From an uncultured Thermomicrobia bacterium (GTDB lineage Bacteria > Chloroflexota > Chloroflexia > Thermomicrobiales > JALYUS01): a stretch of 64,000 nt of DNA. The first letter of the stretch is position 1; every line of letters starts with the position of its first letter. The stretch covers positions 31,346 through 95,345 of the forward strand of contig CALBSO010000143.1 of the NCBI GenBank assembly GCA_937968015.1. The letters run 5' to 3'. The position numbers were made by a program, and so were the translations under genes. The notes below the pieces were generated by a model. It was not told the origin of the DNA. It did not search any database and saw only the letters and a program-made list of their open reading frames with translations. Below are positions 30,336 to 44,584 of the stretch, piece by piece.

Positions 30336-31454
30336 GTGAACGTGTTGATCGTTGACGAGCGAGCGGCGGAAGCAATCGCGCTCGGCGCGGGCATCCTCGG
30401 CACAGGCGGCGGCGGCAACCCCTATCTGGGTTTTTTGATGACTCGCGAACTGCTACGGCACGGAGCGAAGATCGCGGTTACCGGGGTGGCGGATGTACCG
30501 GACGACGCGGTTGTCTGTGGGATTGGTGCGATGGGCGCGCCGACCGTTGGCATCGAGAAGTTACCGCGTGGCGATGAGCCGCTGGCCGCGCTCCGGGCAC
30601 TGGAGCATCATACCGGATGCCGTGTCACGCATCTTATCGCCGGTGAAATTGGCGGCGCGAACGCGATGCAACCCCTCATTCAGTCCGCGTTGAGCGGACT
30701 GGCGGCGATTGATGGCGACGGTATGGGGCGGGCATTCCCAGAGCTGCAACATTGCTCATTTTCGATTGGCGGCGTGCCCTGCACGCCGGCAGCGATCGCG
30801 GATTGCCACCATAATACCGTGGTTTTCCCCGCCTTGCGCGACACAGAGACGCTTGAACGGTTCGCACGCGCCGTGACGGTGCAAATGGGCGCGCGTGCCG
30901 GATATGCGTTCCCGATCATGTCGGGTGCGGAGATGAAGCGGACCGCCGTGTCCGGCTCCTACACGCTGGCGCACGCCATTGGGCGAGCGGTGCTGACGGC
31001 GCGCGCCGCGCACACGGACCCGATCGCCGCCATCCTGGCAATAACAGAGGGTACGGTGCTCCTGCGTGGGCGGATTGTGGATGTCGAGCGGCGGCTGGTC
31101 GCCGGGTTCGCCCGCGGTCGTCTTGAGATCATGGGCACTGGCAGCGACAGGTTGCGCGAGATAGAAATTGCCTTTCAGAACGAGAATCTCGTTGCTTGGG
31201 AAGGGCCGCGTCGGCGGCGGGTGCTCGCAACGGTGCCGGATCTGATTACGCTCGTAGACGAGGAAACCGGCGACCCGGTGACGACGGAGATCACCCGCTA
31301 TGGCCTCCGGGTCGCCGTTCTCGGCATGCCGGCGCCTCAGCAACTGAAAACAGCCGAAGCATTGGCAGTTGTCGGGCCGCGAGCATTCGGCTACGACGTG
31401 CAATTTACTCCACTTCCGGGCAGATACGGTAGGGCGTGTCCTCAGTTGTGGTAA
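30336..31454 (+). CDS. DUF917 family protein (usual partner of hydantoinase-like genes)
   Basis: LGAGILGTGGGGNPYLG is the DUF917 N-terminal signature as I recall it. GTG start 6 nt after the hydantoinase stop. The last 6 codons plus stop (CPQLW*) are encoded inside the left inverted repeat described below. Confidence 0.7.
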   Translation: MNVLIVDERAAEAIALGAGILGTGGGGNPYLGFLMTRELLRHGAKIAVTGVADVPDDAVVCGIGAMGAPTVGIEKLPRGDEPLAALRALEHHTGCRVTHLIAGEIGGANAMQPLIQSALSGLAAIDGDGMGRAFPELQHCSFSIGGVPCTPAAIADCHHNTVVFPALRDTETLERFARAVTVQMGARAGYAFPIMSGAEMKRTAVSGSYTLAHAIGRAVLTARAAHTDPIAAILAITEGTVLLRGRIVDVERRLVAGFARGRLEIMGTGSDRLREIEIAFQNENLVAWEGPRRRRVLATVPDLITLVDEETGDPVTTEITRYGLRVAVLGMPAPQQLKTAEALAVVGPRAFGYDVQFTPLPGRYGRACPQLW

Positions 31455-37737: not shown

Positions 37738-38586
37738 ATGCGTCGTCGTGCTGCCACGGTGCTGATTATCGCAGTTGCTGCCGCGGCATTCGTGGGGACC
37801 TGGACCGTGGCATACCGTATGGGCGAATCTGACGGGCGTGCGAAGGTTTCGGCGGACCGGAGCGCGTTCCAAACGCGGGCAGCGGGCAACCCGCAAGGAA
37901 GCGCGACCGGCGGACTACCCGGCGGGACACCAAGAACGCGCGCCGCCGCTGGGTCAGCCGTTGCGGATACAGGCACGCCGTCCGCCGGTAGTGGGTCGAG
38001 CGTGCGCGGTTCGCGGGGTGCGGCTGGCAGTCCTGCGGCCTCGGGCACTGGGCGCCCCTCCGGTGCAGCCACGAGTAGTATTGCCGGCCGTGTGACGAAG
38101 ATTGATGGGACGACGGTCATCGTGCAACAGACGGATACCTCGGTCGTAACGGTGACGACGACGAGTGACACCGCGATCAGGAAACTTGTCTCCGGTGTGT
38201 TCAGCGATCTAAAGACGGGTGATGTCATCGCGGTTGATGGCGCCAAGACGGGCGATGCCGCGTACAACGCCAAGATGATCACGAGCCTTGGTCAAATCAC
38301 GGGCGGAGGAGCGGGTCGGCCGGCGAATGTGCTGCCGCAGGGTGTGACTGGGCCGGTAGTGACAGGCCAAATCACGCGCATAGACGGCGGGACGATCACG
38401 GTGCAAGGTTTCGATGGCGCGACCGTGACCATCATTTCCTCGCCCGCGACCGTCGTCAAGACGCAGCAACCGGGGACATTGAGCGACATCAAAAGCGGCG
38501 ATCTGTTGCTCGTAGTCGGTGAGAAGTCCGGCGATACGGGGTTCGTCGCACGGAGTATCACGAATCAAGGCGCGTCGTCCGGATGA
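37738..38586 (+). CDS. Membrane-anchored or secreted protein with low-complexity linker and two tandem ~70-aa beta-rich repeats (DUF5666-like)
   Basis: N-terminal TM or signal VLIIAVAAAAFVG and a Gly/Ser/Ala/Pro-rich linker. Repeat 1 (38086-38292) is GRVTKIDGTTVIVQQ...DLKTGDVIAVDG. Repeat 2 (38365-38571) is GQITRIDGGTITVQG...DIKSGDLLLVVG. Confidence 0.65.
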   Translation: MRRRAATVLIIAVAAAAFVGTWTVAYRMGESDGRAKVSADRSAFQTRAAGNPQGSATGGLPGGTPRTRAAAGSAVADTGTPSAGSGSSVRGSRGAAGSPAASGTGRPSGAATSSIAGRVTKIDGTTVIVQQTDTSVVTVTTTSDTAIRKLVSGVFSDLKTGDVIAVDGAKTGDAAYNAKMITSLGQITGGGAGRPANVLPQGVTGPVVTGQITRIDGGTITVQGFDGATVTIISSPATVVKTQQPGTLSDIKSGDLLLVVGEKSGDTGFVARSITNQGASSG

Positions 38587-38612: not shown

Positions 38613-39299
38613 ATGGTACGGACAATCCTCGTCGTTGATGACGAACCGAATATCACGCGTTTGCTCGGCATGTATCTCACCAAGGAAGGCTATACCGTCG
38701 AAACTGCCGCCGACGGCGCTGCCGCTGTGGCGAAGGCGCGCGCGACGCATTACGCGCTGATCCTGCTCGATCTGATGCTCCCTGGTATGGACGGATTGGA
38801 AGCGTGCCGGACGATTCGGCGCACGAGTGACGTGCCAATTATTATGCTCACCGCGCGCTCCGAGGATGTGGACAAGATCGTTGGCCTCGAAGTTGGCGCG
38901 GACGATTACGTGACCAAGCCATTCAACCCACGCGAACTCGTCGCGCGCGTCAAGGCAGTGCTGCGTCGGTACGAAGCGGCGGCATCGCCGGAGCGGCAAG
39001 TCCTGACGGTCGGCGACCTCACGATTGATCTTGATCGGCGCGAAGTGCGTGTCGGTGACGAATTCGTCGAGGTACGGGCGAAAGAGTTCGCGCTCCTCGT
39101 CGCCCTCGCACGGCGGCCCGGCGTCGTCGTCCCGCGTGACCGACTGCTCAATGATGTGTGGGGATACGAATACAGCGTGGACACGCGAACCGTGGACGTG
39201 CATATCTCGACCCTTCGTGACCGGATCATCAACGCCAGCGCGCGGATCGAGACCGTCTGGGGTGTTGGATACAAATTGGTGGCGGACAGCAAACCCTGA
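38613..39299 (+). CDS. OmpR/PhoB-family response regulator
   Basis: ILVVDDEPNI, LILLDLMLPGMDG (phospho-Asp), a KPF block, and a winged-helix C-terminus VDVHISTLRDRI...IETVWGVGYKL. Confidence 0.92.
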   Translation: MVRTILVVDDEPNITRLLGMYLTKEGYTVETAADGAAAVAKARATHYALILLDLMLPGMDGLEACRTIRRTSDVPIIMLTARSEDVDKIVGLEVGADDYVTKPFNPRELVARVKAVLRRYEAAASPERQVLTVGDLTIDLDRREVRVGDEFVEVRAKEFALLVALARRPGVVVPRDRLLNDVWGYEYSVDTRTVDVHISTLRDRIINASARIETVWGVGYKLVADSKP

Positions 39300-39326
39300 C
39301 AGTGGGACTATCCCCGCGCGCATGCG

Positions 39327-39356
39327 AAAAAGACGGCCAACTGGCCGTCTTTGTCT
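39327..39356. terminator. Bidirectional rho-independent terminator
   Basis: AAAGACGGCC-aact-GGCCGTCTTT, flanked by an A-run on one side and a T-run on the other. Serves the response-regulator operon (+) and tRNA-Asn (-). Confidence 0.7.
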
Positions 39357-39362
39357 CTTCAA

Positions 39363-39437
39363 TGGCTCCCGGACCAGGATTCGAACCTGGAACCTAGCGG
39401 TTAACAGCCGCGCGCTCTACCGTTGAGCTATCCGGGA
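39363..39437 (-). tRNA. tRNA-Asn (anticodon GTT)
   Basis: Reverse strand: acceptor TCCCGGA/TCCGGGA, D arm GCTC-AACGGTA-GAGC, anticodon loop CTGTTAA, T arm CCAGG-TTCGAAT-CCTGG, encoded CCA. One 27:43 mismatch in the anticodon stem. Confidence 0.85.
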
Positions 39438-39457
39438 ACGGTCGTCCCACGGGCGGC

Positions 39458-39486
39458 ATCCTACCATGTCTTTGCTCGCGCGGCAA
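39458..39486 (-). promoter_or_regulatory. Promoter for tRNA-Asn (TTGCCG-17nt-TGgTAGGAT)
   Basis: Reverse strand reads TTGCCG cgcgagcaaagacatgg TAGGAT. The -10 element ends 20 nt upstream of the tRNA 5-prime end. Same architecture as the other stable-RNA promoters in this window. Confidence 0.5.
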
Positions 39487-39489
39487 GAC

Positions 39490-39987
39490 CTATGATTGGC
39501 CGTCCGCCTCAAGCGCGTCGCGCACGAACTCCGCGTGGCCTTGCGGCTTGACGTTGAAATAGACGGCTTGCACGGCCCCGTCGGCGTCAACGACGAAGGT
39601 GCTGCGCGCCACACCCATATAGGTCTTGCCATACATGCTTTTTTCGACCCACACGCCGTGCTTCTGTGCCGTTGTTGCCCCTTCATCCGAGAGGAAGAGG
39701 AAGGGCAACGCATTGTTTGCCTGGAAGGTGTGCAGTGGCGCGATGGGGTCGGGGCTGATGCCGACGACCCGGTAGCCCAAACGGTCAAAATCGGCCTTCA
39801 GATCACGGAAGGCCACTGCTTCAACCGTTCAGCCATCGGTGTTCGCTTTCGGGAAGTAGAAGAGGACCATTCCCCGGTGGTCACGGATAAGATCGGCGAC
39901 GGAATGCGTCGCGCCGTCGGTGCCAGGCAGGGTGAAATCAGGCAGCGGTCCACTGACCTGCGGTAGCGTGGCTGCGGAATCTCCCAA
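39490..39987 (-). CDS. bcp: Bcp-type peroxiredoxin with in-frame UGA (putative selenocysteine) at the peroxidatic position
   Basis: Reverse-strand translation from TTG 39987 (AGGAGG 5 nt upstream; an in-frame TAG five codons further upstream limits the N-terminus) gives LGDSAATLPQVSGPLPDFTLPGTDGATHSVADLIRDHRGMVLFYFPKANTDG-[TGA 39831-39829]-TVEAVAFRDLKADFDRLGYRVVGISPD.... The TGA occupies the Cys of the universal PxxxTxxC Prx motif. The ORF track shows only the 108 codons after the TGA. Confidence 0.8.
39780..39829 (-). promoter_or_regulatory. SECIS-like stem-loop immediately 3-prime of the UGA
   Basis: The RNA reads UGA-ACGGUUGAAGCAGU-GGCCUUC-CGUGAUCU-GAAGGCC-GAUUUUG-ACCGUU. It has a 7-bp perfect upper stem with an 8-nt loop containing GU 22-29 nt after the UGA, and a 6-bp lower stem AACGGU/ACCGUU that starts at the A of UGA. 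Wobble pairs bridge the two stems. Confidence 0.7.
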
Positions 39988-40012
39988 GATGTCCTCCTAC
40001 GATGCTGCGAGT

Positions 40013-40058
40013 CGCGACTCGGCGCACGCGACTCGTCCAATCCCCGATACGCGACTCG
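40013..40058. repeat. Three direct copies of CGCGACTCG in the SBP-bcp intergenic region
   Basis: Copies at 40013-40021, 40027-40035 and 40050-40058. The first is part of the perfect palindrome GAGTCGCGACTC. Confidence 0.8.
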
Positions 40059-40059
40059 G

Positions 40060-41571
40060 CTATTTTTTGACCGCTTCCGCGAAGGCTTGCTCCATCTTCG
40101 TTTGGGCGGCCTTTGCGGCATCCTGCGGGGATTTCCCGCTGACGACAACGTCCTGGAGCATCTCCGAGTAGATGCGCTTCTGTCCGGTGGCGCTCATCTG
40201 GGTGAGCAAGTCCGGCGTCGGTTGTGCCGGAAGCCACGTCGGTTTCGCGTTCGTGATGCCAGCAGGGAAGGCATCGAAGTAGGGCCGGTCCTTCCAGAAC
40301 TTGGCATTCGCGAGGTCCTTGTAGACCGGATACCAACGGCCTCCGACCTTTTCGTAGACCGCTTCGACCTTGTCCGGCTTCATGATCTCACGAATCATTG
40401 CCTTTGCGGCGTCCACCTGCTTCGAGGCGGAGAAGACGGACCATGACCATGTCCCAAGCGAGGAACCGGTCTGCCCCGACTTCCCTTTCGGGTTTGCTGC
40501 CTGCGTGGTGTCTTTCAGGAGTTCCTTATCGTTTTGATCGAGATAGGCGAAGATCGAGGCGGGATTGAAGACGAAGCAAGACTGGCGGGACTGATAGGAT
40601 TTGTTATTGCTACTATCATCCCATGACGGCGAATCCTGCGGAATCAATTTGTCCTTCCACCACGTCTGCACTCTGGTCAGCGCGGAAATCGTCCCGTCAT
40701 TGTTGATCGCAGGCTTGCCGTCTTTGTCCACCAGCGTGCCGCCATCCGCGAGGAGCAACTGTTGGATGTTGCCGTCACCGTCCGGCGTGCGGCCGAGGGT
40801 GAAGCCGATGCCGTAGAGTTTCGGCGGACTATTGACCTTTCGCGCGATCTGCTCCAACGCATCCCACGTATCGGGCGCCTGCCGGTTGCCGGTGGCCTTT
40901 TCAATCAGATCGAGACGCGCATAGGTGACGGAGAGGTCCGCCTGCATCGGAATCGAGTACGTCTTGCCGTTGACCTGCACGTACGGCAGCAGTTGCTCGT
41001 AGATGCCGCCACCCAGACCCTTGACGTCGTTGTAGACGTCGGAAAGATCGGCGAGCCGATTTTGCGCCGCATAGTAGATCGTGTTCGTCCCGCTCAACAT
41101 GACGACATCAGGGATCGCACCCGTCTCAATGGCGCCGGCAACTTTGGAGTCGTAGCTGGAGCCATCGAGTGGGACGTATTCCACGCTCACGTTATTTGCC
41201 TTACCCCAGTCGGCCATCTGTTGACCGAGCAGCGCGTCGCCGTCCTTCGTGAAGGAGACGATGCCCCACGCCGTCATCTTGCCGCTGAAGGACTTCACTG
41301 CTGTCGGCGCGACCGCAACCGCCGATCCCGTCGTGGCGGGCGCGGTCGTTCCGGCAGCGGCAGGCGGTTTCGTCGCGGCGGCCGCGCTGCCGCTCGGCGC
41401 GGTCGTTGCTGATGCGCCCGCGGTGGTCGCCGCCGGTTTCGGGGTATCCGTGGCGCTCGATCCGCCGCAGGCGGCAAGGACTGTGCTGACTGCGGCGGTG
41501 GCAGCCGTTGCCGCGACACCGCGCAGGAGCGTGCGACGGCTCGTCATAGTGGTTTGAAGTCGGTCGAACAT
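40060..41571 (-). CDS. Sugar ABC transporter substrate-binding lipoprotein (family 1 SBP) with Tat-type signal
   Basis: MFDRLQTTMTSRRTLLRGVAATAATAA...VLAACGG carries a twin-arginine motif plus lipobox, followed by a Thr/Ala/Pro linker and an SBP_bac_1-like body. GGAGGA lies 8 nt before ATG 41571. Confidence 0.85.
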   Translation of the reverse strand: MFDRLQTTMTSRRTLLRGVAATAATAAVSTVLAACGGSSATDTPKPAATTAGASATTAPSGSAAAATKPPAAAGTTAPATTGSAVAVAPTAVKSFSGKMTAWGIVSFTKDGDALLGQQMADWGKANNVSVEYVPLDGSSYDSKVAGAIETGAIPDVVMLSGTNTIYYAAQNRLADLSDVYNDVKGLGGGIYEQLLPYVQVNGKTYSIPMQADLSVTYARLDLIEKATGNRQAPDTWDALEQIARKVNSPPKLYGIGFTLGRTPDGDGNIQQLLLADGGTLVDKDGKPAINNDGTISALTRVQTWWKDKLIPQDSPSWDDSSNNKSYQSRQSCFVFNPASIFAYLDQNDKELLKDTTQAANPKGKSGQTGSSLGTWSWSVFSASKQVDAAKAMIREIMKPDKVEAVYEKVGGRWYPVYKDLANAKFWKDRPYFDAFPAGITNAKPTWLPAQPTPDLLTQMSATGQKRIYSEMLQDVVVSGKSPQDAAKAAQTKMEQAFAEAVKK

Positions 41572-43795: not shown

Positions 43796-43872
43796 TGGTA
43801 CGCCCGGAGGGACTCGAACCCCCAACCTTCTGATCCGAAGTCAGACGCTCTGTCCAATTGAGCTACGAGCGC
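43796..43872 (-). tRNA. tRNA-Arg (anticodon TCG)
   Basis: Reverse strand: GCGCTCG-TA-GCTC-AATTGGACA-GAGC-G-TCTGA-CTTCGGA-TCAGA-AGGTT-GGGGG-TTCGAGT-CCCTC-CGGGCGT-A-CCA. Confidence 0.88.
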
Positions 43873-43885
43873 ACTGGAAGGAAAA

Positions 43886-43962
43886 TGGGGTGCCTCACGG
43901 GGCTCGAACCCGTAACATCCGGCTCCACAGGCCGGCGCTCTGCCGATTGAGCTAGAGGCACC
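43886..43962 (-). tRNA. tRNA-His (anticodon GTG) with encoded G-1
   Basis: Reverse strand: G(-1)-GTGCCTC-TA-GCTC...CCGGC-CTGTGGA-GCCGG...ACGGG-TTCGAGC-CCCGT-GAGGCAC-C-CCA. G-1:C73 is the His identity element. Confidence 0.9.
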
Positions 43963-43965
43963 ACA

Positions 43966-44403
43966 GTGCATGCGGGGATGTCAGGCGCGTAAGCCGAGTT
44001 CTGTTGACGCATAAGAATGCGCTGATGACCATCTCTCTCCGTCCCGGCGGACCGGGACGGGCCGCGTCGTCGCCTTCACGGCTGCTCTCGACTTTCGGTC
44101 TCGGCGAGTCACCGTCAGCAACCGGCATCGGCTGCGTGCGACCGGATCGGAGATTGCAGCAGGGAGGATTGCCCGTTTCATCCGGCCCGCCGAAGCGGCC
44201 GACACCGTTTCTGTTGCTCTCGGGCGGTTGCCCGCCCGCCCGCTCCCGCGGGACTGTCAGCGCGATGACGCGCTTCCCCGGCTTTCGCCGGGCACCCTGC
44301 TCTGTGCTGCTCGGACTTTCCTCTCAGGTCTTCACCTGAGCGGCCATCCTGCCCAACACCCCGTATTGCCTTGTCAATGCGCCGTGCCATGTCCCGCATG
44401 CAC
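43966..44403 (-). ncRNA. rnpB: RNase P RNA, bacterial type A
   Basis: The reverse strand contains GAGAGGAAAGUCCGAGC (44312-44323 region, CR-I), ACAGAAACGGUGUC (CR-II-like), GGAUGAAACGGGCAAUCC and ACAGAACUCGGCUUA (43990-44004, CR-V). The proposed P1 pairs 5-prime GUGCAUGCGGG (44403-44393) with CCCGCAUGCAC (43976-43966). Ends are approximate, within about 5 nt. Confidence 0.88.
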
Positions 44404-44418
44404 GGCTTGGATACGAAC

Positions 44419-44505
44419 TGGTGCCGAAGGAGGGATTTGAACCCTCACGCCCCAACGGGCACTACGCCCTGAACGTAGCGCGTCTGCCGATTCCGCCACT
44501 TCGGC
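44419..44505 (-). tRNA. tRNA-Leu (anticodon CAG), long variable arm
   Basis: Reverse strand: acceptor GCCGAAG/CTTCGGC, anticodon stem CTACG/CGTAG with loop TTCAGGG, variable arm TGCCCGTTGGGGCG, T arm GAGGG-TTCAAAT-CCCTC, CCA encoded. Confidence 0.88.
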
Positions 44506-44509
44506 CAAC

Positions 44510-44584
44510 TGGAGCCGACGATCGGATTTGAACCGATGACCTGCTGTTTACGAAACAGCTGCTCTGCCGCTGAGCTACGTCGGC
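44510..44584 (-). tRNA. tRNA-Thr (anticodon CGT)
   Basis: Reverse strand: GCCGACG-TA-GCTC-AGCGGCA-GAGC-A-GCTGT-TTCGTAA-ACAGC-AGGTC-ATCGG-TTCAAAT-CCGAT-CGTCGGC-T-CCA. Confidence 0.9.

Follow-up and report, generated by a model that had tools for sequence, protein, structure and literature searches.

Does an in-frame UGA that separates two adjacent open reading frames (ORFs) end a protein, or does it specify selenocysteine (Sec) within a single longer one? This question is raised by a peroxiredoxin locus on the minus strand of a 64,000-nucleotide stretch of DNA from an uncultured Thermomicrobia bacterium (positions 31,346 to 95,345 of contig CALBSO010000143.1, hereafter the window). The ORF list of the window contains two minus-strand ORFs lying next to each other in the same frame, one of 52 amino acids with a TTG start (39829-39987) and one of 108 amino acids with a GTG start (39490-39816). 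An earlier interpretation made from the letters alone (the sequence-only reading) had pointed out that the ORF track gives only the 108-amino-acid piece and that an N-terminus continues upstream in the same frame, and both the ORF list and the translation agree with this. Here we describe evidence that the locus is very probably one complete peroxidase-type selenoprotein gene, which gene callers have cut into a fragment of 107-108 amino acids. The features of the gene are as follows.

39490-39987, minus strand: predicted full-length selenoprotein gene for a BCP/PrxQ-type peroxiredoxin, 165 codons (from sequence, frame, Pfam match and collinear orthologues)
39829-39831, minus strand: in-frame UGA, predicted Sec, in the peroxidatic Cys column of P-K-A-N-T-D-G-U-T (TGA in 22/22 orthologous loci; aligned with an invariant Cys)
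39985-39998, minus strand: ribosome-binding site AGGAGG (39998-39993), 5-nt spacer and TTG start (39987-39985), read from the sequence

A peroxiredoxin gene with UGA at the catalytic position

In a single frame the gene comprises a TTG start, 52 codons, the UGA (Sec53), 112 codons and a TAG stop (39492-39490), and this frame is closed upstream by an in-frame TAG (39999-39997). Single-frame translation of 39490-40005 on the minus strand reads ...AS, stop, EDILGDSAATLPQVSGPLPDFTLPGTDGATHSVADLIRDHRGMVLFYFPKANTDG, stop, TVEAVAFRDL...GQS, stop. At the level of codons, 40005-39490 passes from a TAG over four codons to the TTG start, LPDFTLPGTDGATHSVADLIRDHRGMVLFYFPKANTDG, the TGA, TVEAVAFRDL and onwards to the TAG stop. 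The TTG start, the AGGAGG 5 nt before it, the upstream in-frame TAG and the length of 165 codons had all been read correctly from the sequence. The start position is also kept in orthologues, where it is mostly TTG (GTG in locus L088 and ATG in locus L087) and is preceded by an AAGGAG-like Shine-Dalgarno (SD) sequence.

With a placeholder at the TGA, the translation matches Pfam AhpC-TSA (PF00578) with an E-value of 1.5e-27 over residues 14-141, that is, across the TGA, and also PF08534 (8.9e-17). The best PDB matches are BCP proteins (5enu, 1.8e-28; 3gkk; 5iiz), and all of the top PDB matches are either BCP or AhpC/TSA proteins. In alignments to BCP structures the TGA falls on the peroxidatic Cys of PKDNTPGCT, and both 5enu and 5iph carry Cys at this position. 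The placement of the TGA on the Cys of the motif P-x3-T-x2-C, as proposed in the sequence-only reading, is upheld by the wider alignment, since the column is Cys in 10/10 full-length homologues as well as in the BCP structures. P46, T50 and R128 are invariant in the same alignment.

When Cys was used as a placeholder for Sec, the best NCBIfam models were Bcp (NF006960) and then PrxQ. The protein scored below the equivalog cutoff of each (123.7 bits against 140 for NF006960, 112.4 bits against 260 for the PrxQ model NF053650). The PrxU selenoperoxiredoxin model (NF040737) likewise failed at 31.1 bits against a cutoff of 270, with only part of its 233-position profile matched. BCP is the best-matching subfamily, and the protein is a divergent member of it. 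There is no cysteine among all 165 residues, and the residue at +5 from the peroxidatic position is Val. A resolving Cys at +5 (G-C-T-x-E-A-C) is present in 8/10 of the Cys homologues, whereas the Sec clade mostly has Val, with Ser in L085 and Lys in L087. Judged by a resolving Cys at +5, therefore, the window protein is not an atypical 2-Cys peroxiredoxin.

Conservation on both sides of the UGA

Orthologous DNA was retrieved from NCBI, ENA, JGI and Logan assemblies, giving 22 loci with 16 distinct sequences over a 139-codon core. These orthologues come from Thermomicrobia/Chloroflexia metagenome-assembled genomes (MAGs) and from metagenomes, and the assemblies were made independently; MAGs with an orthologue include GCA_038232355.1, GCA_030155865.1, GCA_020200735.1, MFD04580.bin.2.53 and MFD04580.bin.2.129. 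The TGA is kept in all 22 loci, with the frame upstream of it open and never disrupted. The ratio of nonsynonymous to synonymous substitution rates (dN/dS, Nei-Gojobori) is 0.087 over the 38 codons that precede the UGA and 0.105 over codons +14 to +100 downstream of it. Such equal purifying constraint on both sides indicates that both halves are translated in this frame. Moreover, the conserved TGA and the dN/dS values together exclude a decayed N-terminus, as well as the sequencing error and the pseudogene that the sequence-only reading had named as ways in which it could fail.

A second signal of conservation lies at the nucleotide level, immediately downstream of the UGA.

39790-39828, minus strand: zone of codons +1 to +13, counted from the UGA, in which synonymous substitution is suppressed and which overlies a hairpin (from the synonymous rate, dS, and synonymous diversity)

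In these codons dS is 0.13, compared with 1.17 in the N-terminal part and 1.22 in the C-terminal part of the gene, a drop of about 9-fold. Synonymous diversity is 0.018 in codons +2 to +13 and 0.38 elsewhere; this is the lowest of any 12-codon segment in the whole gene, and none of 200,000 random 12-codon sets was as low. The sole synonymous changes between codons -1 and +13 are ACG/ACA at +1 and CUG/UUG at +10, the latter falling in the loop of the hairpin. This frozen stretch corresponds to the upper stem, loop and inner lower helix described below. We regard these signals of conservation, and not the energy of the hairpin, as decisive for reading the UGA as a predicted recoding site.

The effect on public annotation is plain. 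The closest database clusters (about 37 clusters at 90% identity, 74-91% identical to the window protein) are all fragments of 102-110 amino acids, from Thermomicrobia or Chloroflexota MAGs where named, and the nearest full-length database protein, a Cys form, is only 57% identical. Public annotation of the clade is systematically truncated at the Sec codon. As the clade is not covered by any selenoprotein-specific annotation model, all public copies seen are truncated. The clusters are deposited as 'redoxin domain-containing protein' or 'peroxiredoxin Q/BCP', and P0014 occurs on about 100 contigs. Peroxiredoxin scans of the genome and metagenome contig collections returned three and two close loci, respectively; Sphaerobacter, Thermomicrobium and Nitrolancea were not among them.

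Two observations concern individual orthologues. The MAG uncultured Chloroflexia MFD04580.bin.2.53 contains two different TGA copies on two contigs, L100 (8219-8683) and L102 (10001-10453), which could be due to paralogy or to mixed strains in the bin. The N-terminal leader of L102 (...DRQHLCPKSV TLPDF) departs from the V-G-x-x-LPDF pattern of the other orthologues.

A conserved hairpin downstream of the UGA

The mRNA downstream of the UGA folds into a hairpin resembling a bacterial selenocysteine insertion sequence (SECIS), whose parts are given below.

39785-39824, minus strand: conserved putative SECIS core (consensus fold of 14 distinct sequences)
39824-39819 paired with 39790-39785, minus strand: lower helix of the core, 6 bp, followed by an internal loop CAG/A (consensus fold)
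39815-39808 paired with 39799-39792, minus strand: upper stem of the core, UGGCCUUC with GAAGGCCG, 8 bp (fold without lonely pairs)
39807-39800, minus strand: apical loop CGUGAUCU, 8 nt, beginning C-G-U
39777-39832, minus strand: extended hairpin with extra outer pairs AACGG/CCGUU, which folds in the window; the outer part is not conserved

A segment of 71 nt beginning just ahead of the UGA has a minimum free energy (MFE) of -30 kcal/mol (z = -2.77), and 4 of 200 shuffled sequences fold as well as this. The MFE is -24.8 kcal/mol for 60 nt and -12.6 kcal/mol for the 40-nt core. If lonely pairs are allowed in RNAfold, an isolated G:C pair is placed inside the 8-nt loop. The same hairpin is present in 13/13 distinct Sec-type sequences, with a UGA-to-loop spacing of 21 nt in every one of them, and the CGUGAU stretch of the apical loop is invariant across all orthologues. 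The lower stem, internal loop, upper stem and loop fold as the sequence-only reading had described them. However, the outermost stem that it included (AACGG/CCGUU) belongs to some orthologues only, being absent or broken in L085, L087, L088, L094, L095 and L096.

The bSECIS model, as it is set out in a 2026 review (PMC13188914), specifies an apical loop of 3-9 nt, an upper stem of 4-16 bp, a G at loop position 1 or 2, usually with G or U after it, a UGA-loop spacing of 16-37 nt and an MFE of -7.5 kcal/mol or lower. The window hairpin falls within all four published criteria (loop of 8 nt and stem of 8 bp, G then U at loop positions 2 and 3, spacing of 21 nt, -24.8 kcal/mol), and the earlier statement that its geometry is that of a bacterial SECIS element therefore holds. 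These criteria are loose, however. They are passed by 16% of the 1871 TGA triplets in the window (63% GC), with 1.7% also having an equal or lower MFE, and by 28/144 (19%) of Cys-type homologues at the equivalent place. Consequently the hairpin taken alone is suggestive and not decisive.

Weighing the alternatives

Several results weigh against Sec insertion at this locus. No tRNA-Sec was found in the 64-kb window by ARAGORN, which detected eight ordinary tRNAs. Homologues of SelA, SelB and SelD were not found by phmmer with E. coli queries (sequences from NC_000913.3), either among the six-frame ORFs of the window or around the 22 orthologue loci in flanks of up to 10 kb. No Rfam family covers the hairpin at the gathering threshold, and none covers 39785-39824 at E <= 10. 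Compensatory double changes were seen at 0/15 pairs, with only single-side G-U/G-C alternation at two pairs. The energy of the hairpin is not distinctive, as in Cys homologues the 60 nt that follow the Cys codon fold equally well on average (-18.4 against -19.1 kcal/mol); after the controls with window TGAs and with Cys homologues, hairpin energy was rejected as a discriminator. With respect to the pairing, covariation is uninformative because the hairpin is nearly invariant, and the structure is supported instead by conservation and thermodynamics. A weak Rfam match to a microRNA family just downstream of the core (39746-39770, E = 4.7) is attributed to chance. With respect to the machinery, the cultured species Sphaerobacter thermophilus, Thermomicrobium roseum and Nitrolancetus hollandicus are SelD+, SelA+ and SelB+ (Peng et al. 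2016, Table S1, PMC5029168), with nine, five and eight known selenoproteins, respectively (Table S2, PMC5029168). This suggests Sec machinery for the lineage studied here at class level only.

The failure to find Sec machinery in the window or in the flanks of the orthologues lends some weight to a different reading, in which the UGA is read through outside the canonical Sec pathway, either by near-cognate Trp, Cys or Arg decoding with stimulation by the hairpin or by a Sec-like tRNA that carries Cys. In that case Cys or some other amino acid would occupy the active site, and it is true that the data show a translated UGA and a conserved RNA element, not the identity of the residue. We nevertheless consider this improbable. 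The UGA occupies the column of the catalytic Cys, in which no residue other than Cys or Sec would work, and for Cys a TGC or TGT codon would be simpler, yet 0/22 orthologues have one. The hairpin moreover has bSECIS geometry and a loop with G-U, and SelA, SelB and SelD occur in cultured members of the class. A reassigned genetic code was also considered and ruled out, since TGA otherwise serves as a normal stop codon in the window; the response regulator gene at 38613-39299, for example, ends at TGA and encodes 228 amino acids, compared with 229 in its orthologues. No other TGA-recoded candidate with a redox motif emerged when codon usage was scored on both flanks of the 313 in-frame TGAs of the window that have 35 or more open codons to either side; this is a weak negative because the score was poor at telling sense from antisense frames.

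Less credible still is that the TGA is a true stop, the locus being a pseudogene or a split gene (a 52-amino-acid peptide plus a 108-amino-acid protein from the GTG at 39816) and the hairpin an unrelated regulatory RNA. Gene callers do annotate it in this way in the approximately 37 database clusters, and the ORF list has two separate ORFs. However, purifying selection is as strong on the 38 codons ahead of the TGA as on those behind it, and the frame is undisrupted at each of the 22 loci. Without a peroxidatic residue there would be no reason to retain Pro, Thr and Arg of the active site, yet they are retained, and the GTG at 39816 sits within the hairpin without a clear SD sequence before it. 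As for a sequencing or assembly error in place of TGC or TGT, nothing speaks for it beyond its being possible a priori, and the same TGA in 16 distinct sequences from independent NCBI, ENA, JGI and Logan assemblies makes it barely conceivable.

Canonical bacterial Sec insertion at UGA-53 by means of the downstream hairpin, yielding a BCP/PrxQ-type peroxiredoxin with a peroxidatic Sec, is in our judgement highly probable on the sequence evidence. A ribosome reaching UGA-53 would encounter, a few nt downstream, a stem-loop acting as a bacterial SECIS, with its loop 21 nt after the UGA. The hairpin would recruit SelB-GTP-Sec-tRNA(Sec), so that Sec is inserted and termination does not take place. 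In the finished protein Thr50 and Arg128, both conserved, would hold the selenolate, which would reduce peroxide and be converted to a selenenic acid. As the protein has no Cys (Val at +5), recycling of the selenenic acid would need an external thiol reductant such as thioredoxin, that is, a 1-Sec mechanism. For the window protein, we infer the dependence on SelB and tRNA-Sec, the incorporation of selenium, the identity of the reductant and the peroxidase activity.

Genomic neighbourhood

The gene order around the locus is kept in orthologous contigs. It comprises two ABC permeases, a solute-binding protein, the Sec-peroxiredoxin and tRNA-Asn, beyond which an OmpR-type response regulator and then a DUF5666-like protein follow on the opposite strand. 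In the window the neighbouring features are as follows.

39363-39437, minus strand: tRNA-Asn(GTT), 52 nt downstream of the peroxiredoxin stop, on the same strand
38613-39299, plus strand: OmpR-type response regulator, divergently oriented, with tRNA-Asn lying between it and the peroxiredoxin
37738-38586, plus strand: ORF of 282 amino acids, rich in Gly, Thr and Ser; two of its segments, ...TKIDGTTVIVQQTD... and ...TRIDGGTITVQGFD..., resemble each other
43796-44584, minus strand: four tRNA genes (Arg-TCG, His-GTG, Leu-CAG, Thr-CGT), just past the ABC permease genes

A scan of 39300-40200 revealed no promoter-like site, including in the 70-nt gap that follows the gene for the binding protein, and co-transcription of the peroxiredoxin with the transporter genes is therefore possible. 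Two terminator-like sites in the same scan lie inside coding sequence and are at chance level. Counterparts of the 282-amino-acid ORF have only a faint match to the Pfam family DUF5666, and they are conserved beside the response regulator. At L094 and L100, which are on the same contig (contig_56737), a DDE transposase gene (DUF772/DDE_Tnp_1) replaces the response regulator downstream of the peroxiredoxin, which indicates a local rearrangement. On the plus strand, opposite the peroxiredoxin N-terminus, there is a weak Rfam JUMPstart match (39943-39970; 16.7 bits against a gathering threshold of 35, E = 0.97), which we ascribe to chance.

Comparison with known selenoperoxiredoxins and related systems

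If the UGA is read as Sec, 'redoxin domain' fragments of 102-110 amino acids that have no active site become a complete antioxidant enzyme. The main value of the finding lies in correcting this systematic mis-annotation and in flagging selenium use in the lineage, as the gene implies both selenium use and a selABCD system in this uncultured Thermomicrobia-related group. Knowledge of recoding itself is left unchanged by this gene.

Sec-containing peroxiredoxins (Prx) are already known in bacteria, as the sequence-only reading had noted and as published surveys confirm (PMC1794560; PMC5029168). In 2006 the PxxxTxxU type had 12 members with five inferred Cys-to-Sec conversions (Zhang et al. 2006, PMC1794560), and by 2016 the count of Sec-Prx had reached 91 proteins from 78 organisms (Peng et al. 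2016, PMC5029168). Among selenoprotein families of bacteria, Prx with T/SxxU is one of the most common (PMC1794560; PMC5029168). The selenoprotein table of the 2026 review includes Peroxiredoxin (Prx), with a citation of Sohling et al. 2001 on PrxU (PMC13188914). The window clade may already have been counted under 'Prx' in published surveys. The literature that we searched contained nothing on a BCP/PrxQ with Sec, and nothing specifically on the selenoproteins of these uncultured lineages related to Thermomicrobia.

The window protein shares with the Sec-Prx family (PF00578, PxxxTxxU) the AhpC/TSA fold, the predicted replacement of the peroxidatic Cys by Sec in T-x-x-U, a coding-region stem-loop directly after the UGA, and widespread Cys-form homologues. 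It differs in that its clade is of the BCP/PrxQ subtype, has no Cys, comes from Thermomicrobia/Chloroflexia MAGs mostly derived from metagenome assemblies, and is not annotated as a selenoprotein among the database matches. PrxU of Eubacterium acidaminophilum (Sohling et al. 2001, as cited in PMC13188914) is similarly a peroxiredoxin whose peroxidatic residue is Sec, whereas the window protein belongs to a different Prx subfamily (NF040737, 31 bits against 270). With respect to the RNA, the hairpin resembles both the bSECISearch model (Zhang & Gladyshev 2005, as presented in PMC13188914) and the E. coli fdhF SECIS in being a stem-loop within coding sequence after the UGA, in having a small apical loop starting with G then U, and in a spacing within 16-37 nt. 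In contrast to the fdhF SECIS, SelB binding by the window hairpin is something that we infer only, and no sequence similarity between the two is expected.

The closest relationship is with Cys-type BCP/PrxQ proteins (NF006960; 5enu, 3gkk, 5iiz), which have the same length, the same P-K-x-x-T-x-G-[C/U]-T-x-E-A motif and the same Arg. These carry Cys at the peroxidatic position, with a resolving Cys at +5 in 8/10, whereas the window clade has a predicted Sec and Val. The closest Cys form, P0021 (L180, 77-565), is 56-57% identical, has a TGC codon and the +5 Cys, and the hairpin is absent. Its gene adjoins the same OmpR-type response-regulator gene as the Sec form, and the two look like a syntenic Cys/Sec pair. 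It is an evenly balanced matter whether the Sec forms constitute an undescribed, independently evolved BCP/PrxQ selenoprotein clade of uncultured Thermomicrobia/Chloroflexia, in which a Cys-to-Sec switch went together with loss of the resolving Cys to give a pure 1-Sec mechanism. The Cys form with its resolving Cys and the Sec form with no Cys are a natural pair for asking why Sec replaces Cys in peroxiredoxins.

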